A stretch of 64,000 bases of DNA from IMG/VR virus record IMGVR_UViG_3300010344_001272, positions 11,046-75,045 of that record, one strand, 5' to 3'. Below the pieces are notes generated by a model. It was not told the origin of the DNA, searched no databases, and saw only the letters and a list, made by a program, of their open reading frames with translations. Source of the stretch: a virus. Taxonomy: Duplodnaviria; Heunggongvirae; Uroviricota; Caudoviricetes. The stretch's first letter is position 1. Every line of letters begins with the position of its first letter. The position numbers and the translations under genes were made by a program. This document shows, in pieces, positions 2,849 to 18,140 of the stretch.

Positions 2849-2922
2849 GCGGGTGTAGCACAGTGGTAGTGCAGGAGCCTTCCAAGCTTCTGACGTGAGT
2901 TCGATTCTCATCACCCGCTCCA
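2849..2922 (+). tRNA. tRNA-Gly(TCC), CCA encoded
   Basis: hand fold: acceptor GCGGGTG/CACCCGC 7/7, D stem GCAC/GTGC, anticodon stem GGAGC/GCTTC, loop CTTCCAA, T loop TTCGATT. Confidence 0.85.
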
Positions 2923-2942
2923 ATTACTGTAGTGACTGGAAT

Positions 2943-3019
2943 GGGTTACTTCGTGCTAAATGGTTTAGCAATTGTCTCTTAAACAATGGTTGCGGTTCAA
3001 ATCCGCCTGTTACCCTCCA
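2943..3019 (+). tRNA. tRNA-like, degenerate; anticodon arm reads Lys(CTT)
   Basis: perfect anticodon arm ATTGT-CTCTTAA-ACAAT and D stem TGCT/AGCA, T loop TTCAAAT, CCA end, but acceptor GGGTTAC/GTTACCC has a T-T mismatch and spacing between arms is off by 1-3 nt. Confidence 0.3.
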
Positions 3020-3038
3020 AATTTTCTCAGTAATTAAT

Positions 3039-3126
3039 GGTCTCAGGAGCTGCTAGGTGTGGCTGCCGGCCTGTCACGCCGGAACGACTAATAATCGACA
3101 GGAGGGTTCGAACCCCTTTGGGACCG
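3039..3126 (+). tRNA. 88-nt type-II-like tRNA with 19-nt variable arm; anticodon loop CTGTCAC reads GTC (Asp)
   Basis: acceptor GGTCTCA/TGGGACC 7/7 with one wobble, D stem AGCT/GGCT, anticodon stem CCGGC/GCCGG, T arm GAGGG-TTCGAAC-CCCTT; long variable arm is unusual for GTC. Confidence 0.45.
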
Positions 3127-3156
3127 CTAACCGTAGTGATAGAACAGAGTTTCATC

Positions 3157-3229
3157 GTGAAAATAACTCAATAGATAGAGTGTATTGCTTCTAACAATAA
3201 GGTCGCTGGTTCGACTCCAGCTTTTTACT
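3157..3229 (+). tRNA. tRNA-Arg(TCT)
   Basis: acceptor GTGAAAA/TTTTTAC with one wobble, D stem ACTC/GAGT, anticodon stem TATTG/CAATA, loop CTTCTAA, T arm GCTGG-TTCGACT-CCAGC; D loop lacks GG. Confidence 0.7.
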
Positions 3230-3261
3230 AAAAAGGCTCTTTCTGGTTTTCTCGGTTAAAC

Positions 3262-3333
3262 AGGGGTATGGTGTAATGGTTAGCATGTTTCTCTCCAAAA
3301 GAAATGATCTGGGTTCGAGTCCTGGTACCCCTG
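3262..3333 (+). tRNA. tRNA-Trp(CCA)
   Basis: acceptor AGGGGTA/TACCCCT, anticodon stem TTTCT/AGAAA, loop CTCCAAA, T loop TTCGAGT. Confidence 0.8.
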
Positions 3334-3363
3334 CTAATCAAATCCAAAACTTTTAGTTCAAAT

Positions 3364-3382
3364 GGATATATAATATAAAAAT
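3364..3382 (+). promoter_or_regulatory. T4-late-like promoter motif GGATATATAATATAAAAAT
   Basis: one of at least seven similar ATATATAA(A/T)AAAA boxes 8-25 nt upstream of start codons. Confidence 0.4.
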
Positions 3383-3389
3383 ATCCTCT

Positions 3390-4052
3390 ATGAATTGCGA
3401 AAATTGCGGAAATAAACATGATGGAACTTATGGTTCTGGAAGATTTTGTTCATCTAAATGTGCTAGAGGTTTTAGTACAAAAACAAAAAGAAAGGAAATT
3501 AACCAAAAGGTAAGTAAAAAACTAAAGAAGAATTTTCTGGAAATAAAAACTTGCCCATGTGGAAAAACGTTTGAAACTTCAAATAAAAAAAGATATTGTT
3601 CTTCTTCTTGTGGAAGTCATTATTCTCAGTTAGGAAAAAATAAGAAAAAAGGGATAGAAAGAAAACAAGGATCGGGGGGATTAAGACCTGGTGGAGGTAA
3701 ATCAAAACAAATTCCATACACAAATTGGCTAGGTTTTAAAATGTTTCTTAACACAGAAGAAATAGAAGTAGCAAAAATACTTGATGAGAAAAAATTAAAT
3801 TGGGATAGAAACAGAAAAGGCTTTCCTTATTTAATGCGAAATGGAAAACAAAGAAAATATTATCCTGATTTTGTAGTAAATGGAAACAAATACATTGAAT
3901 ACAAAGGGTGGGTTACTGAAGAAATGGAATGGAAAATGAACGATGCAGTTAAAACTAATAATCTAAATTTGAATATTATAGTCGGAACAGACCCTCGATA
4001 CCAGAGATTCGGTATAACCTTAAAAGAATTAAAAAATGGAAAAAGCTTTTAA
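3390..4052 (+). CDS. putative homing-type endonuclease (N-terminal zinc ribbon, C-terminal YYPDF...IEYKGW PD-(D/E)xK-like motif); paralog of 17118-17750
   Basis: CxxC...CxxxC at N-terminus, basic middle, conserved C-terminal block shared with second copy; sits inside tRNA array. Confidence 0.4.
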   Translation: MNCENCGNKHDGTYGSGRFCSSKCARGFSTKTKRKEINQKVSKKLKKNFLEIKTCPCGKTFETSNKKRYCSSSCGSHYSQLGKNKKKGIERKQGSGGLRPGGGKSKQIPYTNWLGFKMFLNTEEIEVAKILDEKKLNWDRNRKGFPYLMRNGKQRKYYPDFVVNGNKYIEYKGWVTEEMEWKMNDAVKTNNLNLNIIVGTDPRYQRFGITLKELKNGKSF

Positions 4053-4236
4053 ATTTTTTCAAGAATTAATTAAAAGACCTGTTATTAAATCTAAAAAAAT
4101 TAATTTTGGTCCGTATTTCGAAACAAGACGGCGAATTGGGGAAAACAAAGTTACGAGAAATCAGGATCAATTAAAGGATTTTTTTGATGCGGTAATAATA
4201 GAACAAGATATTTTCGAAAAAGAGAAACGCGTATAA
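4036..4236 (+). CDS. hypothetical protein
   Basis: 66-aa ORF. Confidence 0.25.
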   Translation: MEKAFKFFQELIKRPVIKSKKINFGPYFETRRRIGENKVTRNQDQLKDFFDAVIIEQDIFEKEKRV

Positions 4237-4289
4237 TCTAACGAATAACTTGGTTAGTCTGGGGCATCGAGAACCTCTATACGCACCAC

Positions 4290-4363
4290 GGGCTGTTAGC
4301 TCAGATGGCTAGAGCGCCTGCCTTGCAAGCAGGAGGCCAAGGGTTCGACTCCCTTACGGTCCA
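4290..4363 (+). tRNA. tRNA-Ala(TGC)
   Basis: acceptor GGGCTGT/ACGGTCC with two wobbles, D arm GCTC-AGATGGCTA-GAGC, anticodon stem CCTGC/GCAGG, loop CTTGCAA. Confidence 0.85.
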
Positions 4364-4424
4364 CTACAGACAGACTGTTAAATTTTCATAGTAACCGTGA
4401 CGACGGGTTTCATAGAAAATTAAC

Positions 4425-4498
4425 GCCTTCGTGGCGCAATTGCGTAGCGCTACTCCCTCTTAAGGAGAAGGTTAAGGGTTCGAGTCCCTTCGGAGGCA
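4425..4498 (+). tRNA. tRNA-Lys(CTT)
   Basis: acceptor GCCTTCG/CGGAGGC, D arm GCGC-AATTGCGTA-GCGC, anticodon loop CTCTTAA, T arm AAGGG-TTCGAGT-CCCTT; A-A mismatch at 27-43. Confidence 0.7.
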
Positions 4499-4506
4499 CA
4501 AATGCC

Positions 4507-4613
4507 GGATGATACACTGTTTTATCACAGTGCCGGCTCCAAGGGCGATACGTGGTGGTTGGTTGCCGGCCCCACCCAGTTGGTTATCATGGGTTCGATC
4601 CCCATATCGTCCA
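4507..4613 (+). tRNA. atypical 107-nt tRNA-like gene
   Basis: perfect acceptor GGATGAT/ATCGTCC, D arm ACTG-TTTTATCA-CAGT, T arm ATGGG-TTCGATC-CCCAT, but the anticodon region is a GCCGGC...GCCGGC stem enclosing 27 nt plus a 19-nt variable region; packed in the tRNA array with 3-8 nt spacers. Confidence 0.3.
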
Positions 4614-4618
4614 CAAAT

Positions 4619-4695
4619 AGTGCGTTAGTTCAGTTGGTTAGAATATCAGACTGTCACTCTGAGGGTCGCGAGTTCGAGTCTCGTACGCACTGCCA
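4619..4695 (+). tRNA. tRNA-Asp(GTC), CCA encoded
   Basis: acceptor AGTGCGT/ACGCACT 7/7, D arm GTTC-AGTTGGTTA-GAAT, anticodon stem TCAGA/TCTGA, loop CTGTCAC. Confidence 0.85.
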
Positions 4696-4702
4696 TAGAA
4701 TC

Positions 4703-4759
4703 TGTAGTAAGAATAGAGTTTCATCGTGGTAAACATTGGTTCGAATCCAATACCGAGCG
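4703..4759 (+). other. conserved tRNA-junction motif followed by an isolated tRNA 3' fragment (T arm ATTGG-TTCGAAT-CCAAT plus acceptor strand ACCGAGC-G)
   Basis: motif TGTAGTAAGAATAGAGTTTCATCGTGG as in three other sites; no D or anticodon arm and no complementary 5' acceptor strand nearby. Confidence 0.3.
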
Positions 4760-4801
4760 CATTGCTTAGTAATTAAACTCTTTTCAACTTTCTCAGATTA
4801 C

Positions 4802-4877
4802 GGGGAGTTAGCTCAGCAGGTAGAGCGACGGACTGTTAATCCGCAGGTCATGGGTTCGATCCCCTTACTCCCCGCCA
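4802..4877 (+). tRNA. tRNA-Asn(GTT), CCA encoded
   Basis: acceptor GGGGAGT/ACTCCCC 7/7, D arm GCTC-AGCAGGTA-GAGC, anticodon loop CTGTTAA. Confidence 0.75.
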
Positions 4878-5143: not shown

Positions 5144-5571
5144 AACTTTATCGATACAGTGTTACATCTTCAAGACATGGTGCAATTCCACACGTTGAGT
5201 TACAATCGTATGATGTTAAAAAGGAAACAAATAAAGGATATTGGATTAGTTTGTATTGGGGAAGTGATAAGAAATGGGTTTCAAAAGATGGATTGCGAAG
5301 ATTTGCATTTCCAACAAAGTATCAAGCAATGCAGAATTTTATAAAGCGAACTGAGAAACGTGTAAAATATTTAGAAATAGATTTACAAGCATGCCAAGTT
5401 GGTTTGCAGTCTGCAAAAAGAATACAAGAAGATATTTCTGAAGATGATGATGTTGTAACATTATATCATATTTTAAAACTGCGGGGTAGAGCAGCGGTAG
5501 CTCGTGAGGCCCATAACCTCAAGGTCGAGGGTTCGAACCCCTTCCCCGCTACAAATGGCGAGAAAGTTTAG
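5140..5571 (+). CDS. hypothetical protein; 3' end reads through tRNA-Met
   Basis: 143-aa ORF; last 30 codons coincide with a well-folding tRNA so the true stop may be misplaced or the overlap is real. Confidence 0.35.
   Translation: MKLYRYSVTSSRHGAIPHVELQSYDVKKETNKGYWISLYWGSDKKWVSKDGLRRFAFPTKYQAMQNFIKRTEKRVKYLEIDLQACQVGLQSAKRIQEDISEDDDVVTLYHILKLRGRAAVAREAHNLKVEGSNPFPATNGEKV
5480..5551 (+). tRNA. tRNA-Met(CAT), possibly initiator (1-72 T-T mismatch)
   Basis: D arm GAGC-AGCGGTA-GCTC, anticodon stem TGAGG/CCTCA, loop CCCATAA, T arm GAGGG-TTCGAAC-CCCTT, acceptor TGCGGGG/CCCCGCT with 1-72 mismatch. Confidence 0.7.
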
Positions 5572-5682
5572 AAAAAGGCTCTTATTAGCTTTCTCATTTC
5601 GGTGTAGTAATTATGAGAGTTTCATCGGAAAAACGTCAAGCTCATAACTTGAAGATCGTTGGTTCAAATCCAGCTCTCGCCA
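5557..5682 (+). tRNA. tRNA-like Met/Ile2(CAT) gene with about 60-nt insertion in the D loop that contains the conserved junction motif
   Basis: acceptor GGCGAGA/TCTCGCC 7/7, D stem GTTT/AAAC, anticodon arm TCAAG-CTCATAA-CTTGA 5/5, T arm GTTGG-TTCAAAT-CCAGC; the canonical parts are interrupted only inside the D loop. Confidence 0.4.
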
Positions 5683-5706: not shown

Positions 5707-5722
5707 TGATATATAAATAAAA
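5707..5722 (+). promoter_or_regulatory. T4-late-like promoter motif GATATATAAATAAAAA
   Basis: immediately upstream of GIY-YIG gene. Confidence 0.4.
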
Positions 5723-5729: not shown

Positions 5730-6284
5730 ATGCCAAGGAAACCAAAAGTGTATCATGTTCTTTACAAAACAACTTGTTTAGTGACAAATCGATATTATAT
5801 TGGAATGCACTCAACAAATGATTTAAATGATGGATATTTAGGAAGTGGAACAAGATTAAGATATTCTATTAAGAAATACGGAATTGAAAATCATAAGTTT
5901 GAAATTTTAGAAAACCTTCCCGATAGAAGTTCTTTGAAATTAAGAGAAAAGGAAGTTGTTAATGAAGAATTAATTAAGGATGTTAATTGTATGAATTTAA
6001 AATGCGGGGGTGAAGGAGGAGGAAAATTTTGGAATAAAGAACACCAGAAAAAATGTTCTATTGCAGGAGCCCTTGCTGTGTTACCTATTAGAAGACAATA
6101 TCATCTTGATAAATTAAAAACAGATCCAGAATATAGAAAAAAATACAAACAATCACTAAGTAAAGCACTATCAGGTGAAAAAAATCCTTTTTATGGAAAA
6201 CATCATACAGAAGAAACAAAACAAAAAATGAGAAAACCTCATAAAACATATAAAAAACGAAAAGCAAAAATCATGACCTCGTAA
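5730..6284 (+). CDS. GIY-YIG homing endonuclease
   Basis: N-terminal KVYHVLYKTTCLVTNRYYIGMHST...GYLGSG GIY-YIG module; paralog at 18204. Confidence 0.75.
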   Translation: MPRKPKVYHVLYKTTCLVTNRYYIGMHSTNDLNDGYLGSGTRLRYSIKKYGIENHKFEILENLPDRSSLKLREKEVVNEELIKDVNCMNLKCGGEGGGKFWNKEHQKKCSIAGALAVLPIRRQYHLDKLKTDPEYRKKYKQSLSKALSGEKNPFYGKHHTEETKQKMRKPHKTYKKRKAKIMTS

Positions 6285-6347
6285 CTCAGTTGGTAGAGTA
6301 CCACACTTTTAATGTGGGAGTCGTGAGTTCGAGTCTCACCGGGGTCA
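6275..6347 (+). tRNA. tRNA-Lys(TTT)
   Basis: acceptor GACCTCG/CGGGGTC, D arm ACTC-AGTTGGTA-GAGT, anticodon stem CCACA/TGTGG, loop CTTTTAA, T arm GTGAG-TTCGAGT-CTCAC. Confidence 0.85.
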
Positions 6348-6363
6348 CAATGATTAGAGTATT

Positions 6364-6593
<230 letters not shown>

Positions 6594-6671
6594 CACTGGA
6601 TGCCGATTGCCGGGGGAGGTATGTTCCCTGATTTGACGGCTATTATCAAAGTGCGGGCATGAAATCCTTTC

Positions 6672-6749
6672 GGAAGATTAGCTCAGTTGGTTCAGAGCAC
6701 TTGCCTTACAAGCAAGGGGTCGTGGGTTCGAATCCCTCATCTTCCACCA
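6672..6749 (+). tRNA. tRNA-Val(TAC), CCA encoded
   Basis: acceptor GGAAGAT/ATCTTCC, D arm GCTC..GAGC, anticodon stem CTTGC/GCAAG, loop CTTACAA. Confidence 0.85.
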
Positions 6750-6760: not shown

Positions 6761-7267
6761 ATGGATTTTAAAGAATTTCCAATCAGACAACAAATGAACA
6801 GACATGATTGTTCAGTATGTGTCATTTGGTGTATACTTAGATATGCTGGAATAGATATTACTTACAGAGATTTATATCGCTTCATTCATCCTCCAATAGG
6901 CCCTAATGATGGGGTTTCTGGAGAACAAGTAATGAAAATACTTAGAAGTTTTGGAATTAATGTTGTTTCAGAAACTAGTAATATTTCAAAATTAAGAATT
7001 GATACAAATAATTGGCCCGTAATAGTCAGTATACAACACAAGAAAAAAAGAAATGTTGATTGGAAAAACATAATCGAATTTGGACATTATGTAATTGTTT
7101 TAAAAGTTGATGATAAAAAAGTAAAATTCATGGATCCAAATTATGGAAAGATAAGGTCTTTAAATATTAAAGATTTTAAAGACAGATGGCATGATGGAGA
7201 TGAAAATGAACTTTGTAAATATCCAGCAATCATATGTATGGTAAATGAATCGAAATCTATACTTTAA
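6761..7267 (+). CDS. putative papain-like cysteine peptidase (C39-like)
   Basis: N-terminal HDCSVCVIWCILRYAGI and later GHYVIVLKV...DPNYG match Cys/His arrangement of C39 peptidase domains. Confidence 0.45.
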   Translation: MDFKEFPIRQQMNRHDCSVCVIWCILRYAGIDITYRDLYRFIHPPIGPNDGVSGEQVMKILRSFGINVVSETSNISKLRIDTNNWPVIVSIQHKKKRNVDWKNIIEFGHYVIVLKVDDKKVKFMDPNYGKIRSLNIKDFKDRWHDGDENELCKYPAIICMVNESKSIL

Positions 7268-7559
7268 GGATGGTGTTCTTTTTGCTAAGGGCTACGAAAG
7301 AGTGGTTCACGGAGGGCGAGGAGATTATATAGAGTTAACTAAAGATCAAATAGTTGTAGAACTTAGATCAAAATTTAAACAATCACTTCCGGAAGCCGTT
7401 TCTGACGAGCCCTTTTATTACTACTGGTTGGTTCCAATTGGAAGAGAAGAAAAAATTTACTGGCAGTGCAGAACTGTAAATTATGCAGATTACAAAATAG
7501 GATATTATTATATAAGTCCTAAGTTAATTATACCATTTGATAGTACAGAATTATTTTAA
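7245..7559 (+). CDS. hypothetical protein
   Basis: 104-aa ORF. Confidence 0.3.
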   Translation: MNRNLYFKDGVLFAKGYERVVHGGRGDYIELTKDQIVVELRSKFKQSLPEAVSDEPFYYYWLVPIGREEKIYWQCRTVNYADYKIGYYYISPKLIIPFDSTELF

Positions 7560-7571
7560 TAAATAAGATAT

Positions 7572-7931
7572 ATGGAAGACAAAGATTTAGATATTAGAAT
7601 CACTCGGGGATCAGGCCCAGGGGGACAACATAAAAACAAGGTGGAAACTTGTGTTATTATAACTCATATTCCAACTGGTTTACAAGAGAAGTGTCAAGAA
7701 ACTCGTAGTAAAATTCAGAATCTTGAACTTGCTAAAGAAAGAATTAAAGCGAAAGTAGAGAAACTACAAGAGCAAAAAATTCAAGAGGCAAAAAATGAAC
7801 GCAGACGTGAATTAATTAAAAACCAGAAAGTAGTTCGTACATATAACTTTGTAAGAAATGAAGTTTATGATCATCGGACAAAAACAAAACACGATCTGAA
7901 AAAGTTTATGAGAGGAGAAATTGATCTATGA
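7572..7931 (+). CDS. arfB: ArfB-like peptidyl-tRNA hydrolase / class I release factor GGQ domain protein
   Basis: ITRGSGPGGQHKNKVETCV GGQ motif block followed by basic C-terminal tail. Confidence 0.75.
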   Translation: MEDKDLDIRITRGSGPGGQHKNKVETCVIITHIPTGLQEKCQETRSKIQNLELAKERIKAKVEKLQEQKIQEAKNERRRELIKNQKVVRTYNFVRNEVYDHRTKTKHDLKKFMRGEIDL

Positions 7932-8119
7932 AACTTACACTCGAAAAAGATATAAAAGTAGCTGTTGAAGTAAATGGTGAAAAATTCATTGGATCCGAAG
8001 AGGGAATTTTATACCAAAGTATTACAGATACAGAAATTTTACTTTATATTAAAACAGAACCTGAAGGAAAAGAAATAAAAATTAAAATAGCAAAAGATGT
8101 TAATAATCAAGGTGCATGA
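7928..8119 (+). CDS. hypothetical small protein
   Basis: 63-aa ORF, overlaps start of bS21 gene in another frame. Confidence 0.25.
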   Translation: MKLTLEKDIKVAVEVNGEKFIGSEEGILYQSITDTEILLYIKTEPEGKEIKIKIAKDVNNQGA

Positions 8120-8297
8120 GGGTGAAAATATTGACAAAGCCCTTAAGAGATTCAAAAGAAAATTCAACATGATTGGAGTTGCTAGTGAATTACGTGAAAG
8201 AGAACAATTCACAAAGCCTTCTGTAAAAAAGAGGCAAATAAAACAGAAAGCTAAATACAGACAATACATGCAGAGAAAAGAAGAAATGGGCGAATAA
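8097..8297 (+). CDS. rpsU: ribosomal protein bS21
   Basis: MLIIKVHEGENIDKALKRFKRKFNMIGVASELREREQFTKPSVKKRQIK matches the S21 family pattern over its full length. Confidence 0.8.
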   Translation: MLIIKVHEGENIDKALKRFKRKFNMIGVASELREREQFTKPSVKKRQIKQKAKYRQYMQRKEEMGE

Positions 8298-8301
8298 CAA
8301 T

Positions 8302-8377
8302 GGTTCGGTAGCTCAATGGATAGAGCAACAGCCTTCTAAGCTGTCGGTTGAGCGTTCGAGTCGCTCCCGAATCACCA
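8302..8377 (+). tRNA. tRNA-Arg(TCT), CCA encoded (second copy of this anticodon)
   Basis: acceptor GGTTCGG/CCGAATC, D arm GCTC-AATGGATA-GAGC, anticodon stem ACAGC/GCTGT, loop CTTCTAA. Confidence 0.85.
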
Positions 8378-8393
8378 ATTTAAATTTTCATTT

Positions 8394-8876
8394 ATGACAG
8401 CACTTTATATTATAATGTTAACCATATTTGTTGGTTATATTTCATGGATATGGGCCAGATATGGTGTATTACCATCTATTTCCCATAGTTATTATTCACT
8501 TCCCGACAATCTTAAATTTATATTTACTTTATGGTCTTGGGGATATGCAATTCCAGCTATCATTGTAGCTTCAACACCATTAATGTTTTTTGCCGGGGCG
8601 GGAATTTGTTTTGTAGGTGCGGCAGCAGCGTATCGAGAAAAAATGACCGAGACTGTTCATATAATTGGAGCAGCATGCGCAATTATTTTTAGTCAATTAT
8701 CTATAATAATCGATTTTGATATGTGGTATGTTACGGTTGCTTTTGCTGCAATTGCTTTACCACTTGCCTTAACAAGATTTTCAAAGAAAGGAATATGTCC
8801 AAATAGAACTTGGTGGGTTGAAATTTTAGCATTTATAACAATAGCTTTAGTATTAGGAATAAAATTATGGTCGTAA
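8394..8876 (+). CDS. polytopic membrane protein
   Basis: about 5 hydrophobic helices. Confidence 0.4.
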   Translation: MTALYIIMLTIFVGYISWIWARYGVLPSISHSYYSLPDNLKFIFTLWSWGYAIPAIIVASTPLMFFAGAGICFVGAAAAYREKMTETVHIIGAACAIIFSQLSIIIDFDMWYVTVAFAAIALPLALTRFSKKGICPNRTWWVEILAFITIALVLGIKLWS

Positions 8877-9142
8877 AGTTGGTATCATATGATGGTTCAT
8901 ATCCAAACTTATGTAGTGGTAAGTTAATTCTTTCTGTTGATGAAAAGGAATGGGTTTTTCCATCATATTGTTTATCAAGTGGCGGCAGCGTATGGTTTGA
9001 CAATGACTGGAGTGAACATGTTGAAGATGGTCCTTGGGGTATAGGTGAATGGCCTGAAGGTTTTCCTGAAGAAGCTAAGGAAGAAGCTTTAAGTGTTATT
9101 AACGAAGAAATTTCCTGGGGTTGTTGCGGAGGATGTGTATGA
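8867..9142 (+). CDS. hypothetical protein
   Basis: 91-aa ORF with C-terminal CCGGC. Confidence 0.3.
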   Translation: MVVKLVSYDGSYPNLCSGKLILSVDEKEWVFPSYCLSSGGSVWFDNDWSEHVEDGPWGIGEWPEGFPEEAKEEALSVINEEISWGCCGGCV

Positions 9143-9384
9143 CAGCGCAAGAATACATAGATGCTTGGGATATAAGATGGGAAAATCATTTTAGATACTC
9201 TGTTTTAGTTGAAGAATTAAGTAATTTACAAGGAATTGATGTAGTTGCCCAGATGGAATCTGTTTTAATAGCCGAAATGACTAAGGAGGTTGACAAACAT
9301 ATACAAAACGATATACAGAGATTATTTAATATGAGTATACAACAATCAGAAAAAATTAACACAATAGTCGATGGAATCCTATAA
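9121..9384 (+). CDS. hypothetical protein
   Basis: 87-aa ORF. Confidence 0.3.
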   Translation: MLRRMCMTAQEYIDAWDIRWENHFRYSVLVEELSNLQGIDVVAQMESVLIAEMTKEVDKHIQNDIQRLFNMSIQQSEKINTIVDGIL

Positions 9385-10597: not shown

Positions 10598-10613
10598 CTT
10601 AATATATAATAAG

Positions 10614-11383: not shown

Positions 11384-11404
11384 TAACATTTAAATTTATA
11401 CAAT

Positions 11405-11887: not shown

Positions 11888-11888
11888 C

Positions 11889-12554: not shown

Positions 12555-12565
12555 CAATAAAAAAT

Positions 12566-13090
12566 ATGAAAAATCTACTAATCATTTTCATCACAACATT
12601 GTTTCTTACCTCGTGTGGGTGGGGAACCTTCGTGCAGGATATGAATTCTGCAAACAATAATCCTAACCGAACTTCATTTGCTGCAGAAATGCAAGAAATT
12701 CGAGATGCTGGCGGTGATATAACGTATACTGCTTTTATGACACATAATGCCATATTTCATGGTGATAATGTACCAAAAACGTTGGAGCAGCACAATAGTT
12801 ATTTCTGTGAATATACTCTTAACGATCAAACATATTTCAAAATTGTTGCATATGAAGCCACAGATCACTTGACAGCACTTGTTTGTACGGATCTAAAACT
12901 TGAAGGTTATTATGAACAAGAAGGACCATTCAATTGGTTTGCTGGGTGTATTGATATGGCTGATGATCAGAAATGCAAATTGCTTTTTTCTGCAGAGTCT
13001 TCTACTTTTCTTGTTATTTATAAAAAGGGAGAATATGGAAGGGCCTTTAAAGGAAGCATATTAAGTGGAATAAATGTACCTCGTAATTAA
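12566..13090 (+). CDS. lipoprotein
   Basis: MKNLLIIFITTLFLTSC lipobox at first ATG; ORF-track start 12536 is a TTG upstream. Confidence 0.45.
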   Translation: MKNLLIIFITTLFLTSCGWGTFVQDMNSANNNPNRTSFAAEMQEIRDAGGDITYTAFMTHNAIFHGDNVPKTLEQHNSYFCEYTLNDQTYFKIVAYEATDHLTALVCTDLKLEGYYEQEGPFNWFAGCIDMADDQKCKLLFSAESSTFLVIYKKGEYGRAFKGSILSGINVPRN

Positions 13091-13107
13091 TTAATTAACA
13101 CAAATAA

Positions 13108-13356
13108 ATGAAAACAAGAGCTCTTTTAAAATTTTCAGCTATTATAGTAGCTGGATTGATGATCCTAGGATTAAATTCCTGTACTAAAAAACCTTGTGAA
13201 AAGGATAATTTTGGAACTGTAATTGTCACTAACCATACAGGTCAGGTGATTTATGTCGATTGTACACAGGCAGGCAGCGATTATAATGACGAACGAATGC
13301 TTGGTATCGGACAGTCAACTACATATCACATGACTCCCGGACAAATAACCGAATAG
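13108..13356 (+). CDS. small lipoprotein of the CxKDNFGTVIVTN family
   Basis: lipobox ILGLNSC; CEKDNFGTVIVTNHTGQVIYVDC parallels 11889 ORF C-terminus. Confidence 0.4.
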   Translation: MKTRALLKFSAIIVAGLMILGLNSCTKKPCEKDNFGTVIVTNHTGQVIYVDCTQAGSDYNDERMLGIGQSTTYHMTPGQITE

Positions 13357-13547
13357 GCAATTGAGGCCTGGGACTATCCGAACGGTTCATGGTATACTGA
13401 CAGCTATTATCTCGGTCAGTGCGAAACACATAACGATCCCTGGACAGACGGTAAAAAGAAAAGTACCAAAAACTTGGAAAAATTGGATGTGAAGGTAAAT
13501 TCCACTATAAAGATTACCCACGAATAATTTTTCAATTTCACATATAA

Positions 13548-13578
13548 AAAGAGCTCTAGTTTAGAGCTCTTTTTTTGT
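13548..13578 (+). terminator. Rho-independent terminator
   Basis: AGAGCTCTA gtt TAGAGCTCT followed by T7. Confidence 0.65.
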
Positions 13579-13580
13579 TT

Positions 13581-13598
13581 GGATATATAATAAAATTA
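13581..13598 (+). promoter_or_regulatory. T4-late-like promoter motif GGATATATAATAAAATTA
   Basis: 10 nt upstream of M23 peptidase ATG. Confidence 0.4.
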
Positions 13599-13607
13599 TT
13601 TCTATGG

Positions 13608-14558
13608 ATGAAGTTTTATACATATCAAAAAGATACTGTTTCGTATCAACGATATAAGTTTTTTAGACTAAAATTCATCATTCCCTTTTTACTTTTTCAA
13701 TCAGTTATAGCATTTATTGTTTTTATTTTAATTGCTACATTTTATACAACACCTAAAGAAAAAATATTAAAACAAGATGTTGCATATTTGTTATACGAAT
13801 TTGATAATGTAAATAAAAGGATGATTGAAACTGAAGCCACATTAGAACAAATTAAACAAAATGATAGTATCATTTATCAATCCTTGTTCGATGTTAATAC
13901 CATAGCAAAAAAGGAATTAAATGTTTATTATGAGGATTTAGAAGGAAATAAATACAGTCAAATGGTTGAATTAACAAATCAAAAACTATCTGAATTAAGC
14001 GCAAGATTAGCAAAAGAATTATATCGTTTAGATGGAATGGTTAAAACTGCTTATTCACATCAAGAAATGCTAACTCATTTGCCTGCTATTCAGCCTATTG
14101 ATAATAAAGATTTAAAAAGGACTGCGTCAGGATGGGGTATGAGAATTCATCCAGTTTATAACATTCAAAAATTCCACTATGGATTGGACTTTACAGCACC
14201 TACAGGAACTTCTATTTATTCAACTGGGGACGGGGTAGTTGAATATGCAATTCCTTATACTAGCAAAGATTCCCAAGGCTATGGAAATGTGATGATTATC
14301 AATCATGGATATGGATATAGAACCTTATATGCCCATATGAATAAATTTAAAGCAAAGATTGGACAGCAAGTTAAAAGAGGAGAAATAATTGGATATGTTG
14401 GAAATACAGGAATATCTACAGGTCCTCATTTACATTATGAAGTTATAAAGGATGGGCAAAAAGTAAATCCTATCTATTATCTATTTAATAGTTTGACTCC
14501 TGAAGAATATCAAAAAATAATCGAGATATCGAATTCAATAACTAAATCTTATGATTAA
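13608..14558 (+). CDS. M23 family metallopeptidase (LytM-like), membrane anchored
   Basis: HYGLDFTAPTGTSIYSTGDGVV ... NHGYGYRTLYAHM ... GNTGISTGPHLHYEV; N-terminal TM helix; start moved to first ATG after promoter box. Confidence 0.75.
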   Translation: MKFYTYQKDTVSYQRYKFFRLKFIIPFLLFQSVIAFIVFILIATFYTTPKEKILKQDVAYLLYEFDNVNKRMIETEATLEQIKQNDSIIYQSLFDVNTIAKKELNVYYEDLEGNKYSQMVELTNQKLSELSARLAKELYRLDGMVKTAYSHQEMLTHLPAIQPIDNKDLKRTASGWGMRIHPVYNIQKFHYGLDFTAPTGTSIYSTGDGVVEYAIPYTSKDSQGYGNVMIINHGYGYRTLYAHMNKFKAKIGQQVKRGEIIGYVGNTGISTGPHLHYEVIKDGQKVNPIYYLFNSLTPEEYQKIIEISNSITKSYD

Positions 14559-14584
14559 AATGGAAGATTAAAACTTTTGATGAA

Positions 14585-14974
14585 TTGAAGAATAAAATAA
14601 ATAAAATAACTATGGAAGATATTACGAAAGAACAATTTCTTGAGGTTTATAATCAGCATTTGCCAAATAAGTGGATAAAATTTATTTACAAATATTTTTC
14701 TCAAGGAACTACGGAAGAAAATTTGAAACCAAGTAAAATAATAACTGCTATCTTACTTATTTTATTTGTTTCAGGATTTTTTGCTACAGTTTTAGGATTA
14801 CCCAAGGCAGCCATTTTGCCTATAGTAATACTTTATGCTATCATATTAACAGCATTAGTTGGTTCAATGTTTTCAGCAGTAATATTGAATAATTTAAGAA
14901 TACGTAAAATACGAAAAAAATTAGGGTTAACAGTGTGGCAATATAATTTACTTGCAGACTTATACGTAGAATGA
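14585..14974 (+). CDS. membrane protein
   Basis: two TM helices. Confidence 0.35.
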   Translation: MKNKINKITMEDITKEQFLEVYNQHLPNKWIKFIYKYFSQGTTEENLKPSKIITAILLILFVSGFFATVLGLPKAAILPIVILYAIILTALVGSMFSAVILNNLRIRKIRKKLGLTVWQYNLLADLYVE

Positions 14975-15453
14975 AAAAACTTTTAATAATATTATCTCTC
15001 ATATTATTTTCATGTGGCCCTTCTCCAGAGCAAAAAATAATAAAATCTTTTGAAGATGGCAGACATCGTAATCATTTTAAAATAAATAATGTATCTATTT
15101 ATGACACTATTTATTATGTAGATATTATTGATTCACTTGAATTTTACGAAAATAAAGTTCGTTTAATTCGAACACAAATAGATGGTCTTAGGGGATTTAG
15201 AGATAGTGTTTTTAAATTAAATTACCCAGATTCTACTCGCAGATCAATTCTTCAAAAGAGATTTGATTTGGACAGGGAATTACAAAGAGATTTACATCAT
15301 GCTTCAAGCCAACAAATGAATAGATATACATTTTATAATATGAATGATAGTATTTGTGGTTATCTAGTCAAAATTTATACTCCTCGAGATACATTTGATT
15401 TTGTTGTTACATCAAAATATACAATAGTTTGTCCAACTTTTATGTTTTATTAA
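14971..15453 (+). CDS. lipoprotein
   Basis: MKKLLIILSLILFSCGPSPE lipobox. Confidence 0.4.
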   Translation: MKKLLIILSLILFSCGPSPEQKIIKSFEDGRHRNHFKINNVSIYDTIYYVDIIDSLEFYENKVRLIRTQIDGLRGFRDSVFKLNYPDSTRRSILQKRFDLDRELQRDLHHASSQQMNRYTFYNMNDSICGYLVKIYTPRDTFDFVVTSKYTIVCPTFMFY

Positions 15454-15454
15454 A

Positions 15455-16048
15455 ATGAATCCATTTATTGTTTATAAGGAAATATTAGATAAATATCTGC
15501 ATTCTGATTCTTCTTTAAAATTGCAACAAGCTTGGAGTGAACCTCATAGAAAATATCACACAACTGAGCATTTAATATCTGTCTTAAAATATTTAGACAA
15601 ATATAGATTTGGGCTGCCTAATGAATTTTATGATGCTTTAGTGTTAGCTGCTTTTTTTCATGATTGTTACTATGATCCTAAAAGTTCTAGAAATAATGAA
15701 GATGAATCAATACGTCGATTTCTTTCTGAATTTCGAACAAAGGGTGATAATTGGAATATACGGAATGCTGTGATGGCAATGATCGAAGCAACTAAATATC
15801 GCAAACGTCCATCACAATATTTAGTTCGTTTATTTTGGGAAGCGGACAATCATCAATTTTATGATGGATATGAAACACTTTTAAAGAATGAACATTTAAT
15901 TAGACAAGAATTTATTCATCTTCCTAAGTCTGTTTATAGAACTAATCGTATAAAATTTCTAAAAACTAACATCGGTCTTTTTAATTCTAATGTTGATAAT
16001 GATCTAAGAAAACTGATGAAATACGTCGAGGATATATATAAAAATTAA
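15455..16048 (+). CDS. HD-domain phosphohydrolase-like protein
   Basis: HRKYHTTEHL ... AAFFHDCYYDP resembles H..H...HD metal site. Confidence 0.4.
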   Translation: MNPFIVYKEILDKYLHSDSSLKLQQAWSEPHRKYHTTEHLISVLKYLDKYRFGLPNEFYDALVLAAFFHDCYYDPKSSRNNEDESIRRFLSEFRTKGDNWNIRNAVMAMIEATKYRKRPSQYLVRLFWEADNHQFYDGYETLLKNEHLIRQEFIHLPKSVYRTNRIKFLKTNIGLFNSNVDNDLRKLMKYVEDIYKN

Positions 16049-16487: not shown

Positions 16488-16596
16488 AAATTTTTATAGA
16501 ATGAAGTGTCATAGCATACATATTAGTTCGATTAGTTCAACTGAAAGTTGTCTGTGGCCTTCTTATGTAAATTGAAGTACTAACTTTAAAAATTAA

Positions 16597-16630
16597 GGGA
16601 AGGCCTAAAAAGACCTTCCCTTTTTTGTTT
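16597..16630 (+). terminator. Rho-independent terminator
   Basis: GGGAAGG ... CCTTCCC followed by TTTTTTGTTTT. Confidence 0.65.
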
Positions 16631-16635: not shown

Positions 16636-16711
16636 GCTCTTTTAGCTCAGACGGTAGAGTACTTCCTTGGTAAGGAAGAGGTCTTGGGTTCGATCCCCAA
16701 AAAGAGCTCCA
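16636..16711 (+). tRNA. tRNA-Thr(GGT), CCA encoded
   Basis: acceptor GCTCTTT/AAAGAGC, anticodon stem CTTCC/GGAAG, loop TTGGTAA, T arm TTGGG-TTCGATC-CCCAA. Confidence 0.85.
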
Positions 16712-16713: not shown

Positions 16714-16803
16714 GGATGGGTGGCCGAGTGGTCTATGGCGTTAGTCTTGAAAACTAATGATCGAGTGATTGGTCCGTGGGTTCGAATCCCACCTCATCCG
16801 CCA
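16714..16803 (+). tRNA. tRNA-Ser(TGA), type II, CCA encoded
   Basis: acceptor GGATGGG/CTCATCC, 3-bp D stem GCC/GGC, anticodon stem TTAGT/ACTAA, loop CTTGAAA, long variable arm, T arm GTGGG-TTCGAAT-CCCAC. Confidence 0.8.
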
Positions 16804-16805
16804 AA

Positions 16806-16895
16806 GGAGGTGTAAAGCGTAATTGCGTATCGCCCCGGTCCCGAAAACCGGTTCCGTCGTAAGATGGAGTGTAGGTTCGAGTCCTATCGCCTCCG
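16806..16895 (+). tRNA. tRNA-Ser(CGA), type II
   Basis: acceptor GGAGGTG/CGCCTCC, anticodon stem CCGGT/ACCGG, loop CCCGAAA, variable-arm stem TCCGTC/GATGGA, T arm GTAGG-TTCGAGT-CCTAT. Confidence 0.7.
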
Positions 16896-16901
16896 CAAAG
16901 A

Positions 16902-16974
16902 CCCGATGTGGCGCAACGGTTAGCGCAAGCGGCTTATATCCACGAGGTTGGGGGTTCGAATCCCTCCATCGGGA
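16902..16974 (+). tRNA. 73-nt tRNA with anticodon loop CTTATAT (TAT, Ile/AUA); weak anticodon stem
   Basis: acceptor CCCGATG/CATCGGG 7/7, D arm GCGC-AACGGTTA-GCGC, T arm GGGGG-TTCGAAT-CCCTC; anticodon stem AGCGG/CCACG has two mismatches. Confidence 0.5.
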
Positions 16975-16979
16975 CTATT

Positions 16980-17061
16980 CCGGATGTGGATGAATGGTTT
17001 AGTCACCAGTCTGATACACTGGGTTCTTTGAACAATGTAGGTTCGAGTCCTACCGTCCGGA
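16980..17061 (+). tRNA. 82-nt type-II-like tRNA with anticodon loop CTGATAC (GAT, Ile)
   Basis: acceptor CCGGATG/CGTCCGG, anticodon stem CCAGT/ACTGG 5/5, 14-nt variable arm with GTTC/GAAC stem, T arm GTAGG-TTCGAGT-CCTAC; long variable arm atypical for Ile. Confidence 0.5.
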
Positions 17062-17098
17062 CTAAGTATTTTCTTGAAATAATATGCTGTTGATTTTA

Positions 17099-17115
17099 GA
17101 TATATAAAATAAAAA
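17099..17115 (+). promoter_or_regulatory. T4-late-like promoter motif GATATATAAAATAAAAA
   Basis: 3 nt upstream region of endonuclease paralog. Confidence 0.4.
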
Positions 17116-17117
17116 GA

Positions 17118-17750
17118 ATGGCAAGAAAATCAAGAAAATTTATTTGTGAAAAATGTGGAAATGAATTTGAATCAAAAAGAAAAGATGTTAGATTTTGTTC
17201 TAATAGTTGCAGGGCTTCAATTATAAATATGGGTAGAAAACCATTTAATTTTGTTGAAGGAAAAATTAGATATTGTTTAACATGCGGAAAAAAACTTCAT
17301 CATCAAACTAAAACAGGATATTGTGTTGACCATTATGTAACAGATGATTTTAAAGACAAAATTAGCAAAGGCGTTAAAAAAATAGGTGGGGGCGGATATC
17401 GAAAAAACTCAGGAAGAGGTAAACATGGGTGGTATAAAGGATTTTGGTGTGACAGTAGTTGGGAATTAGCTTGGGTTATTTATAATTTAGATCACGGAAT
17501 AAAATTTGAACGTAATACTAAAGGATTTGAATATATTTTTGAGGAAAAAATTTATAAATATTATCCAGATTTTAAAATATTAAAAGACAATTTGTACATA
17601 GAAATAAAAGGATGGATAGATGAAAAAAACAAAGCAAAAATTTCTCAATTTAAAGGTTTTTTAAAGGTATTATTTAGAAATGACATGAAATATATTTTTG
17701 AATACGTTGAAAATAAATACGGAAAACAATTTATAAAAATGTATGAATAA
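17118..17750 (+). CDS. putative homing-type endonuclease, paralog of 3390-4052
   Basis: N-terminal CEKCGNEFESKRKDVRFCSNSC zinc ribbon and C-terminal YYPDFKILKDNLYIEIKGW block. Confidence 0.4.
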   Translation: MARKSRKFICEKCGNEFESKRKDVRFCSNSCRASIINMGRKPFNFVEGKIRYCLTCGKKLHHQTKTGYCVDHYVTDDFKDKISKGVKKIGGGGYRKNSGRGKHGWYKGFWCDSSWELAWVIYNLDHGIKFERNTKGFEYIFEEKIYKYYPDFKILKDNLYIEIKGWIDEKNKAKISQFKGFLKVLFRNDMKYIFEYVENKYGKQFIKMYE

Positions 17751-17834
17751 CATGGAGAGTTGCCAGAGTGGTCTATCGGGGCAGCCTGCTAAGCTGTTGA
17801 ACGCGATATGTGTTCCGTGAGTTCGAACCTCACA
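17744..17834 (+). tRNA. tRNA-Ser(GCT), type II, CCA encoded
   Basis: acceptor GGAGAGT/ACTCTCC, anticodon stem GCAGC/GCTGT, loop CTGCTAA, T arm GTGAG-TTCGAAC-CTCAC. Confidence 0.8.
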
Positions 17835-17895
17835 CTCTCCGCCACTGAAAACGATGCTAAAGTTATCCCTGTTTTAAGTAGCGGAAGTTTTAGGG

Positions 17896-17982
17896 ATGAC
17901 AAACTGGAGAGTTGGCAGAGTTGGTCTATTGCGGCAGCCTGGAAAGCTGTGATCGAGAGATTGGTCCGTGGGTTCGAATCCC
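17896..17982 (+). tRNA. tRNA-Ser(GGA), type II
   Basis: acceptor GGAGAGT/ACTCTCC, anticodon loop CTGGAAA, T arm GTGGG-TTCGAAT-CCCGC. Confidence 0.8.
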
Positions 17983-18075
17983 GCACTCTCCGCACTTGGT
18001 GTAATCACGGAACGAACCGTGTCTTTGGAAATGGCCACCAAAGAAGCATTTGATGTTGATGCAGCCTTGGTATAC

Positions 18076-18140
18076 GGTGGTATTAGTGTTAACGGTTAGC
18101 ACGCAAGTCTGTGGAACTTGTAGTGAAGGGTTCGAATCCC
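18076..18140 (+). tRNA. tRNA-His(GTG) with encoded G-1 opposite C73
   Basis: G-1 then acceptor GTGGTAT/ATACCAC 7/7, D arm GTGT-TAACGGTTA-GCAC, anticodon stem CAAGT/ACTTG, loop CTGTGGA; T stem only 3 clean pairs. Confidence 0.75.

Follow-up and report, generated by a model that had tools for sequence, protein, structure and literature searches.

What does a phage gain from a long run of transfer RNA (tRNA) genes, and why should that run be broken repeatedly by nuclease genes? The question is raised by positions 2,849 to 18,140 of a 64,000-nucleotide (nt) stretch of DNA from a virus of the class Caudoviricetes (positions 11,046 to 75,045 of IMG/VR record IMGVR_UViG_3300010344_001272), which was analyzed whole and is called the window below. 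An earlier note, made from the sequence without database searches, had described about 27 tRNA genes in eight clusters, interleaved with homing endonucleases. We conclude, with a probability of roughly 85%, that a huge Lak-related phage here carries an island of tRNA and translation genes, that homing endonucleases have colonized this island, and that three of its tRNAs carry structural expansions that are under selection.

With default settings, ARAGORN reported 22 tRNA genes, all on the plus strand between 2849 and 18151, and none in the rest of the window. The Rfam tRNA model (RF00005) gave 23 matches at its gathering score (at least 29 bits), which added 5615-5679 and a partial match at 2955-3006 to the ARAGORN set and missed 3039-3127. 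At a threshold of 95% (-ps95), ARAGORN gained the Lys(CUU)-like gene at 2943-3019 and the Ser(CGA) gene at 16806-16896. The union of the finders comprises 25 credible tRNA genes (Table 1), plus two degenerate remnants (4543-4614 and 4727-4760) that fail tRNA acceptance, arranged in eight blocks of 5, 6, 2, 3, 1, 2, 5 and 3 elements. The earlier count is therefore matched, and automated finders accept 25 of the 27 genes that had been folded by hand. The four serine isoacceptors claimed are also present, with anticodons UGA, CGA, GCU and GGA, and the small open reading frames (ORFs) at 4502-4732, 16908-17093 and 17808-18053 overlie tRNA genes, as had been proposed. For arginine, the claim of four isoacceptors is right as to genes and wrong as to anticodons, of which there are three: UCU (twice), ACG and UCG. 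A CCA end is encoded in 11 of the tRNA genes. The region had been called very dense for a phage; however, huge phages are reported to have as many as 67 tRNAs per genome (PMC7162821), so the density is normal for phages of this kind.

Genes for a head-maturation protease and a major head protein lie in the window; the head protein shares 48% identity over 98% of its length with its counterpart in Prevotella Lak megaphages and 74-94% identity with proteins of IMG/VR contigs. No close phage relative was found in GenBank at the DNA level, where the matches were tRNA-sized only. The G+C content is about 32%, stop-to-stop ORFs in the standard genetic code fill 54 of the 64 kb, and all three stop codons are in use. 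An alternative genetic code was considered and rejected, because the standard code fits and ARAGORN gave no suppressor tRNA except a spurious intron prediction. SprB repeats occur in a neighboring protein and, together with the relationship between Ile(GAU) and bacterial tRNA-Cys described below, they indicate a Bacteroidota host. The source, a huge Lak-related phage, probably has such a host. Related loci are given L numbers here; three of these contigs, L007, L008 and L009, span the complete island and are collinear with the window.

Four free-standing endonuclease ORFs of two families, named here by their first positions, interrupt the tRNA blocks. ORFs 5730 and 18204 had been read as GIY-YIG genes, and this reading holds: they are paralogs (43% identity, 7e-42), both strongly match phrog_314, which is annotated as 'homing endonuclease', and the GIY-YIG catalytic motif (VYHVLYKTT...NRYYIGMHST) is N-terminal. 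A NUMOD3 domain is found in ORF 5730 at 6.9e-13, above the cut-off, and was not detected in ORF 18204, which matches the SegE_GIY-YIG profile at E=0.002, short of the Pfam cut-off. The 3' end of ORF 5730 overlaps tRNA-Lys(UUU) by 10 nt. The other two, ORFs 3390 and 17118, are likewise paralogs (34% identity, 2e-14), and their earlier description as zinc-ribbon/PD-(D/E)xK-like endonucleases is supported by a Cys-rich N-terminus and by the residues E116, P150-D151-F152 and E162-x-K164-G165, which are invariant across four paralogs, two from the window and two from a relative. Their profile matches are weak but agree with one another: Phage_endo_I (0.0038 and 2.4e-4), the TnsA-like N-terminal domain (0.0058), T7 endonuclease I (PDB 1m0d, E=0.24), phrog_945 ('endonuclease', 3e-7) and phrog_9019 ('resolvase', 2e-6).

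Comparison with the relatives revealed that these genes come and go. ORF 5730 is missing in L007, L031 and L035, where tRNA(CAU) abuts tRNA-Lys(UUU) with few bases between, and ORF 17118 is missing in L007, where Ile(GAU) and Ser(GCU) lie 5 nt apart. Conversely, L008 and L009 have three ORFs that the window lacks: two are HNH ORFs, one following tRNA-Asn and one separating Ser(UGA) from Ser(CGA), and the other is a third GIY-YIG ORF ahead of the initiator tRNA; L007 has another PD-(D/E)xK paralog before Ile(GAU). Judged from sequence, this pattern of presence and absence supports the view that they are mobile homing-endonuclease genes. The island is also a mosaic of identities. Between flanks of 91-94%, identity to L008 reaches 99.5% in the endonuclease-bearing segment 5475-6353, and segment 16803-17993 is 99.4% identical to L009; the segments neighboring both are 86-94% identical. 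Such a mosaic is consistent with homing accompanied by co-conversion of flanks. In phage T4, the genes for tRNA-Arg and tRNA-Ile are separated by the free-standing GIY-YIG gene segB, which has a predicted late promoter upstream; segB is needed if the tRNA region is to be inherited preferentially in mixed infection (PMC2988022). Thus, the polymorphism, the identity mosaic and this precedent support a segB-like reading of the island, and the analogy with segB drawn in the earlier note is apt. Apart from the endonucleases, L007 differs from the window by a 1.4-kb insertion after tRNA-Val (within L007 5902-7714) that encodes two DNA methyltransferases, an N6/N4 DNA methylase and a Dam-like D12 methylase, the D12 enzyme being fused to or overlapping the C39 peptidase gene.

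Each of the four endonuclease ORFs is preceded, within about 25 nt, by a box of the form GATATATAA(A/T)AAA. The same box precedes late genes (ORF 35427 and the prohead protease gene at 36663) and is found at 3365, 5708, 13582, 16031, 16473, 17099, 18180, 35405 and 36636, just upstream of plus-strand genes. The box was matched 25 times, against 11.7 expected, and none of 100 shuffles reached 25; a scan for sigma-70 promoters showed no enrichment (67 sites against 71.9 expected). We take the box to resemble the T4 late promoter, TATAAATA, in which case the endonucleases would be expressed late.

Compensatory substitutions were analyzed for the three expanded tRNAs: Ile(GAU), Asp(GUC) and an insert-bearing tRNA(CAU), whose abnormal structures the earlier note had not remarked on. 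The first two have a long paired variable arm, but their anticodons are not those of Ser, Leu or Tyr. Ile(GAU) is 83 nt long, with a 7-base-pair (bp) acceptor stem that begins with C1-G72, A73, a 3-bp D-stem, and a 13-nt variable region (17023-17035) that forms a 4-bp stem (GUUC/GAAC). Its D-arm retrieved 19 loci from IMG/VR, several of them on contigs of 197-365 kb. All 14 distinct sequences keep GAU and A73; 10 have a variable-arm hairpin, varied in sequence and in some cases closed by a GCAA or UUCG loop, and 4 have an ordinary 5-nt loop. When the cloverleaf and variable stem were scored across this family, 99.1% of cells were paired and 14 of the 24 pairs had changed on both sides; all four pairs of the variable stem covary. 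No shuffle out of 500 reached the observed percentage paired, number of covarying pairs or covariation score, and slid controls were 28-57% paired. Because the siblings with a 5-nt loop share the same body, the variable arm is an addition to a class-I tRNA. That body matches tRNA-Cys(GCA) of Bacteroidales rather than Ser, Leu or Tyr tRNAs: all 97 matches of its 20-nt D-arm pattern in bacterial genomes are chromosomal tRNA-Cys(GCA) genes, almost all from Bacteroidales (Prevotellaceae, Muribaculaceae, Alistipes/Rikenellaceae and others), and the anticodon stem is nearly the same. The likeness may hint at the host and at where the phage tRNA came from; that tRNA may be a tRNA-Cys-type body remodeled by changes of U73 to A73 and GCA to GAU that later gained its variable arm.

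Asp(GUC) at 3039-3127 (89 nt, G73, C38) has a 3-bp variable stem in the window. Eleven nucleotides of its variable arm (3086-3096) are missing in L007, L008 and L009, and the ortholog in L033 has a different hairpin at the same site, CAGA-GAAA-UCUG, with a 4-bp stem. Across the four orthologs 98.9% of cells are paired, five pairs have changed on both sides, and GUC is kept in every one. The same architecture emerged from a wider survey of 289 ARAGORN tRNAs from the window and 17 related loci, 33 of which are 82-90 nt long with His, Asn, Met, Thr, Cys, Lys, Trp, Asp or Ile anticodons (Rfam scores of 54-64 bits). The extra length sits in the variable region, often with a GNRA or UUCG loop, and often the gene stands beside one of normal size with the same anticodon. 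Among the relatives, variable-arm tRNAs occur in L010, L011, L013, L014, L023-L027, L031 and L033. With one exception, their discriminator bases follow the anticodon: A for Ile, Lys and Met, G for Asp, Asn and Trp, U for Cys, and C for most His. Judged by the identity rules reviewed for each synthetase (PMC9976931), these tRNAs are therefore probably cognate isoacceptors with an added hairpin rather than mutated Ser, Leu or Tyr tRNAs, and Ile(GAU) and Asp(GUC) are most likely charged by the synthetase that matches the anticodon.

Further oddities were seen in the related arrays, which also hold 76-nt genes of class-I size with Ser anticodons and a Tyr(GUA) gene of 74 nt. A 13-nt hairpin with a GUAA tetraloop, AGACGTAAGTCCG, is shared by Thr(UGU) at L023 8792 and Lys(UUU) at L027 2088 (minus strand); its recurrence on unrelated contigs suggests a hairpin that is passed from one tRNA to another or serves as a common binding site. 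L027, which carries a short-loop Ile(GAU), also has a GOLLD RNA (RF02032, 254 bits) at 9689-10110, adjoining the tRNA array.

The third expanded tRNA, tRNA(CAU), directly follows the initiator-like tRNA-Met and has a 55-nt insert in its D-loop (5572-5626). Its 5' half (5557-5571) reads GGCGAGA-AA-GTTT-AG; past the insert come GG-AA-AAAC, a normal anticodon arm (loop CUCAUAA), the T arm and TCTCGCC-A, with A73. Rfam aligns it as a full tRNA with a 59-nt D-loop insertion, and the minimum-free-energy fold retains the acceptor, anticodon and T helices. Orthologs were recovered from IMG/VR, JGI and ENA assemblies in five variants (window, L007, L031, L036 and L010), and the expanded tRNAs recur in independent assemblies from these three sources. 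Across the insert, the D-stem changes from GUUU/AAAC to AUUC/GAAU, with two both-side changes; two T-stem pairs have also changed on both sides, and in L010 pair 31:39 is C-G instead of G-C. Neither the acceptor stem nor the anticodon varies over all five, and the gene order of fMet-like tRNA, insert-bearing tRNA(CAU) and Lys(UUU) is held in most. We also considered a 65-nt tRNA(CAU) at 5615-5679, with the acceptor GAGAGUU/AGCUCUC. It was rejected because it intrudes on the T-stem and its acceptor pairing is lost in L031, while GGCGAGA/TCTCGCC and the D-stem are kept or covary. A hairpin AGGCU/AGCUU within the insert was discarded as well, as it is not conserved in L007 or L031.

The insert resembles spacers found elsewhere in the island. 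It starts with the motif found 3' of tRNA-Arg(UCU) at 3230, AAAAAGGCTCTT...TTTCTC, and ends with the motif found 5' of the same gene (3157), GTAGTRA...GAGTTTCATC, the border motif being GTTTCATC. Because the borders match the flanks of tRNA-Arg(UCU), the insert looks like a captured trailer-plus-leader spacer. Two modules can be distinguished. Module A, given by the regular expression GTAGTRA-N5-10-RGTTWCWTCG, ends exactly at tRNA 5' ends; module B (AAAAAGGCTCTT...TTTCTC) begins immediately past a tRNA 3' end, and GAGA(A/G) of module A is able to pair with TTTCTC of module B. Spacer modules occur in the window at 3131-3156, 3231-3261, 4388-4415, 4703-4726 and 5572-5626, and also in L007, L008, L010, L031 and L033; patterns with fixed spacing gave no match, as the spacing varies. 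The leader motif also stands before the T-arm remnant at 4727, with a variant before Lys(CUU) at 4425, and module A resembles the 5' acceptor strand and connector of the atypical Lys(CUU)-like tRNA (GGGTTACTTCG). These modules are possibly processing signals, recombination scars or protein-binding sites.

How these parts might work together can be proposed as follows. The approximately 25 co-oriented tRNAs in eight blocks would supply the decoding of AT-rich codons, replace lost host tRNAs, or both, and among the blocks sit an RNA ligase gene and a small gene for a GPGGQ-containing protein whose sequence resembles the ArfB/ICT1 peptidyl-tRNA hydrolase and ribosome-rescue factor. Free-standing homing-endonuclease genes, representing two or more nuclease folds and each equipped with a late-type promoter box of its own, would have colonized the gaps between blocks. 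In co-infections the predicted enzymes would cut endonuclease-free alleles and so drive the inheritance of their own genes and of the neighboring tRNAs, as T4 segB does; such homing would keep the island mosaic and leave tRNA debris. The hairpins of Ile(GAU) and Asp(GUC) and the insert of tRNA(CAU) would be maintained by selection on cloverleaf pairing. Codon usage in 56 ORFs of the window is strongly biased toward A- and T-ending codons: the share of ATA is 37% among Ile codons, that of AGA 58% among Arg codons and that of AAA 82% among Lys codons. The matching tRNAs UAU, UCU (two genes) and UUU are present, presumably for use in translation.

Several observations weigh against parts of this scheme. 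Some of the tRNAs read rare codons: Ser(CGA) reads TCG, which makes up 5% of Ser codons, and Lys(CUU), present in two copies, reads AAG, which makes up 18% of Lys codons. Codon supplementation by itself therefore does not account for the set. The PD-(D/E)xK assignment depends on a motif and on sub-threshold profiles, all Pfam matches being below their cut-offs, and an AlphaFold model of the ORF 17118 protein, built from a two-sequence alignment, was unusable (mean predicted local distance difference test score, 38.8). Finally, the insert-bearing tRNA lacks G18G19 in L036 and L010, and L010 also lacks TTC in the T-loop; because of these losses it may not be an ordinary elongator. More tentatively, and at somewhat less than even odds, we propose that huge phages of Bacteroidota carry a selected class of expanded tRNAs with a phage-specific purpose, made up of variable-arm class-I tRNAs (Ile, Asp, His, Asn, Met, Thr, Cys, Lys and Trp) and the insert-bearing tRNA(CAU). 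The variable-arm members would keep their cognate identity elements. The purpose might be escape from host nucleases that target tRNAs, selective handling by phage enzymes, or a new step of RNA excision and ligation.

A different account of the whole island is counter-defense, in which phage tRNAs replace or out-compete host tRNAs that host anticodon nucleases have cut or that the phage's own host shut-off has removed, and the expansions resist nucleases or mark the copies for phage enzymes. Defenses that target tRNAs are known to be evaded by phage tRNAs; T5 tRNAs, for instance, escape PARIS and retron-linked nucleases. The island would suit such a role in that isoacceptors are duplicated with differing bodies (three Lys, two Asp and two Arg(UCU)), variable-arm genes in related arrays often have a canonical neighbor with an identical anticodon, and the island itself encodes an RNA ligase and a GGQ rescue factor. 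However, no defense or anti-defense gene was identified in the window, the ligase has no polynucleotide kinase partner in the region, known evasion proceeds through changes in the anticodon loop and not variable arms, and the expansions have no observed tie to nuclease resistance, so we regard this as rather unlikely. The ligase also figures in a second proposal, that the 55-nt insert is an intervening sequence removed by splicing, or is excised to leave a two-piece tRNA that the ligase might reseal. The borders of the insert do look like tRNA 3'-trailer and 5'-leader processing contexts, the internal helix UUCUCAU/AUGAGAG is roughly retained in all variants, and the RNA ligase gene lies 3.7 kb downstream. 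Against this, nothing credible was matched in the insert or the spacers at E<=5 among introns (group I included), ribozymes or known RNA families, and no splicing endonuclease was found. No conserved bulge-helix-bulge was seen at the borders by eye, without a dedicated search, and the candidate border pairing GAAA/UUUC is lost in L031; RNase P would not be expected to cut inside a D-loop, and the fold has a z-score of only -2.2. We consider excision doubtful.

Two further readings concern the expanded tRNAs themselves. The variable-arm tRNAs could be class-II (Ser, Leu or Tyr) tRNAs with the wrong anticodon that are charged by the Ser, Leu or Tyr synthetase and deliberately mistranslate Ile or Asp codons: both Ile(GAU) and Asp(GUC) have the long paired arm, seryl-tRNA synthetase reads class-II shape and not the anticodon (PMC7609411), the G73 of Asp(GUC) is also found in tRNA-Ser, and several variable-arm tRNAs of the relatives have class-II-like D-arms. 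Yet the Ile(GAU) family includes 5-nt-loop members with the same body, that body is of the Bacteroidales tRNA-Cys type, and the stems, at 3-4 bp, are shorter than the tRNA-Ser arms in the window. The discriminator fits the anticodon in nearly all cases, including U73 with GCA in Cys and C73 with GUG in most His, which makes mistranslation of the kind known for nematode nev-tRNAs very unlikely. Alternatively, the abnormal tRNAs might be decaying or neutral by-products of endonuclease-driven recombination. The two remnants show that tRNA debris exists in the island, the D-loop insert is made of the spacer modules found on either side of tRNA-Arg(UCU) 3157, a composition suggestive of illegitimate recombination, the Asp variable arm differs from that of its closest relatives by a single 11-nt indel, and the Lys(CUU)-like and Asp(GUC) tRNAs score poorly on standard models. 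Neutral decay would hardly leave the pairing and covariation of Ile(GAU), which 500 shuffles failed to match, five covarying pairs in only four Asp(GUC) sequences, or double changes in the D-, T- and anticodon stems of tRNA(CAU) across five lineages with invariant anticodon and acceptor; anticodons are otherwise conserved or change synonymously (CUU to UUU). We judge this improbable and retain selection on the expanded cloverleafs as part of the preferred reading of a homing-endonuclease-colonized translation island.

Table 1. Coordinates of tRNA genes, remnants, protein genes and putative control elements in the window.
Feature	Coordinates	Strand	Evidence
Terminator-like hairpin, 10 pairs then T run, just 5' of first tRNA block	2787-2813	+	
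tRNA-Gly(UCC), CCA encoded	2849-2922	+	ARAGORN, Rfam 69.6 bits
Atypical tRNA-Lys(CUU)-like, CCA encoded	2943-3019	+	ARAGORN -ps95; Rfam partial, 34.8 bits
tRNA-Asp(GUC), variable-arm hairpin	3039-3127	+	ARAGORN
tRNA-Arg(UCU), AT-rich body	3157-3229	+	ARAGORN, Rfam 63.4 bits
tRNA-Trp(CCA)	3262-3334	+	ARAGORN, Rfam 60.4 bits
GATATATAA-type box before ORF 3390	3365-3378	+	
Free-standing endonuclease ORF, Cys-rich N-terminus, PD-(D/E)xK-type C-terminus	3390-4052	+	phrog_945 3e-7
tRNA-Ala(UGC)	4290-4364	+	ARAGORN, Rfam 68.5 bits
tRNA-Lys(CUU)	4425-4499	+	ARAGORN, Rfam 60.5 bits
Degenerate tRNA-like element	4543-4614	+	ARAGORN -ps90 only ('???'), repeat family D2
tRNA-Asp(GUC), canonical, CCA encoded	4619-4695	+	ARAGORN, Rfam 67 bits
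T-arm-only tRNA remnant	4727-4760	+	Repeat search
tRNA-Asn(GUU), CCA encoded	4802-4877	+	ARAGORN, Rfam 67.6 bits
Initiator-like tRNA-Met(CAU)	5480-5552	+	ARAGORN, Rfam 58.3 bits
tRNA(CAU) with D-loop insert	5557-5682	+	Rfam 41.6 bits
GATATATAAATAAA box before GIY-YIG ORF 5730	5708-5721	+	Exact match
Free-standing GIY-YIG + NUMOD3 homing-endonuclease ORF	5730-6284	+	phrog_314 8e-38
tRNA-Lys(UUU)	6275-6348	+	ARAGORN, Rfam 70.1 bits
tRNA-Gly(GCC)	6521-6594	+	ARAGORN, Rfam 68.5 bits
tRNA-Val(UAC), CCA encoded	6672-6749	+	ARAGORN, Rfam 72.8 bits
Small RF-1-domain protein, 119 amino acids, GPGGQ motif	7572-7931	+	PF00472 3e-25
tRNA-Arg(UCU), CCA encoded	8302-8377	+	ARAGORN, Rfam 68.5 bits
RNA ligase, nucleotidyltransferase domain only	9371-10003	+	PF09414 4.5e-11; phrog_548 1.3e-11
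tRNA-Arg(ACG), CCA encoded	10445-10521	+	ARAGORN, Rfam 65.8 bits
tRNA-Arg(UCG)	10524-10598	+	ARAGORN, Rfam 69 bits
Strong hairpin terminator, upstream of block 7, reads as terminator on both strands	16595-16622	.	
tRNA-Thr(GGU), CCA encoded	16636-16711	+	ARAGORN, Rfam 67.1 bits
tRNA-Ser(UGA), CCA encoded	16714-16803	+	ARAGORN, Rfam 59.2 bits
tRNA-Ser(CGA)	16806-16896	+	ARAGORN -ps95; 37.1 bits on tRNA-Sec model
tRNA-Ile(UAU)	16902-16975	+	ARAGORN, Rfam 59.8 bits
tRNA-Ile(GAU), class-II-style variable arm	16980-17062	+	ARAGORN, Rfam 51.9 bits
GATATATAAAATAA box before ORF 17118	17099-17112	+	
Free-standing endonuclease ORF, Cys-rich N-terminus, PD-(D/E)xK-type C-terminus	17118-17750	+	Nuclease-profile matches
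tRNA-Ser(GCU), CCA encoded	17754-17844	+	ARAGORN, Rfam 45.4 bits
tRNA-Ser(GGA)	17906-17993	+	ARAGORN, Rfam 54.1 bits
tRNA-His(GUG), G-1, C73	18076-18151	+	ARAGORN, Rfam 44.7 bits
GATATATAAATAAA box before second GIY-YIG ORF 18204	18180-18193	+	Exact match
Free-standing GIY-YIG homing-endonuclease ORF	18204-18848	+	phrog_314 1.8e-34
Double glycosyltransferase, 816 amino acids	45103-47553	-	
Beta-glucosyltransferase-like protein	59435-60622	-	

Other tRNAs of the island also depart from the usual form or vary among the relatives. In the Lys(CUU)-like tRNA a connector of 4 nt precedes the D-stem of 3 bp, and the acceptor stem contains a T.T mismatch; its L007 ortholog carries UUU, still Lys. The AT-rich tRNA-Arg(UCU) lies between a module A (3131-3156) and a module B (3231-3261), and this entire unit is missing in L007, where tRNA-Trp is an 85-nt variable-arm version. 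Of the two remnants, the element at 4543-4614 combines a 7-bp acceptor stem and a perfect T arm with an anticodon arm that is aberrant, and it is kept in L007 and L008; the one at 4727-4760 is preceded by a module A (4703-4726), and the sequence 3' of its T arm varies among close relatives. The tRNA-Met(CAU) at 5480-5552 has a 1:72 mismatch and an A11:U24 pair and, going by known initiator features, is probably an initiator tRNA. Ser(CGA) is identical in L008 and L009 and missing in L007, and Ile(UAU) has C1-G72 and a lineage-specific C.A mismatch within the anticodon stem. Two small structured inserts within tRNA spacers vary as well: a 79-nt element between Ser(GGA) and His (17994-18072) is present in the window and L008 and missing in L007 and L009, and a 40-nt hairpin before the degenerate tRNA (4502-4541) is missing in L008.

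Regarding the protein genes of the island, no kinase/phosphatase (Pnkp) partner for the RNA ligase was found among the ORFs scanned from 6761 to 16048, and a PDB sequence search with the ligase was uninformative. C39 and M23 peptidases are also encoded. The 1.2-kb segment 11888-13084, missing from L007, L008 and L009, encodes two proteins whose signal peptides are of the lipoprotein type, with a weak PKD match in one of the proteins, and looks like moron-type cargo rather than an endonuclease. Outside the island, GC skew flips sign near 40 kb of the window, and the minus strand from 41000 to 62000 holds a long gene run that includes several glycosyltransferases, with G+C falling to 26-30%.

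Islands of this general kind are known. Like the T4 segB region, the window has a GIY-YIG gene amid tRNAs with its own late-type promoter; here there are two, each behind a TATAAATA-like box. T4 differs in having eight tRNAs, about a third as many, whereas the window has four endonuclease ORFs of two folds and its relatives at least four more insertion sites. The T4 Seg proteins are only distantly related to the GIY-YIG ORFs of the window (SegE_GIY-YIG, E=0.002), for which cleavage is predicted. In phage T5, a cluster of more than 20 tRNA genes is interrupted by several free-standing HNH homing-endonuclease genes. T5 belongs to another phage lineage, has other nuclease families, and its tRNAs are of standard architecture. 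The nematode nev-tRNAs, class II in shape, bear Gly or Ile anticodons and receive Leu. They share with the window a long variable arm on a class-I anticodon, including Ile, but are mischarged tRNA-Leu-like bodies, whereas Ile(GAU) has a tRNA-Cys-like scaffold, A73 and short-loop siblings. Archaeal intron-containing and split tRNAs are also interrupted in the D-arm region with parts that still form a cloverleaf; the window differs in its bacterial and phage context and in showing neither a bulge-helix-bulge nor a splicing endonuclease. Bacterial tRNAs with a group I intron carry it in the anticodon loop, in contrast to the 55-nt D-loop insert described here, which has no ribozyme match. Huge and Lak phages likewise have Bacteroidota hosts, tens of tRNAs distinct from those of the host, and translation factors (PMC7162821); Lak phages reportedly use an alternative code (PMC8346664), whereas the window uses the standard code. 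Allo-tRNAs (Mukai et al. 2017, PMC5389517; PMC7609411) are similar in being unusual metagenomic cloverleafs, some of them in phages, but they are defined by an 8/4 or 9/3 acceptor/T-stem, whereas the tRNAs of the window are 7/5 with an expanded variable arm or D-loop.

A tRNA island invaded by homing endonucleases is, therefore, of an already known and ordinary kind, given T4, T5 and the huge phages. The expanded tRNAs are provisionally new to the literature. Structurally expanded tRNAs are not mentioned in the available portions of the huge and Lak phage accounts (Al-Shayeb et al. 2020; Devoto et al. 2019), and phages and D-loop expansions are absent from a 2020 review of non-canonical tRNAs (PMC7609411). 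A literature search for phage class-I variable-arm tRNAs or D-loop inserts found nothing relevant, although its coverage was incomplete and it is weak evidence of novelty.

The island provides a clear, polymorphic example of an endonuclease-invaded tRNA island from a Lak-related huge phage and, with natural endonuclease-free alleles in hand, its homing sites can be mapped. It also indicates that phage tRNAs can gain a variable arm or a large D-loop insert and retain it under selection. This bears on how additional tRNA domains are tolerated by aminoacyl-tRNA synthetases, RNase P, the CCA-adding enzyme and the ribosome, on how phages might protect their tRNAs from host nucleases, and on the remodeling of tRNA genes, by which a tRNA-Cys-like body may have become an Ile(GAU) decoder.

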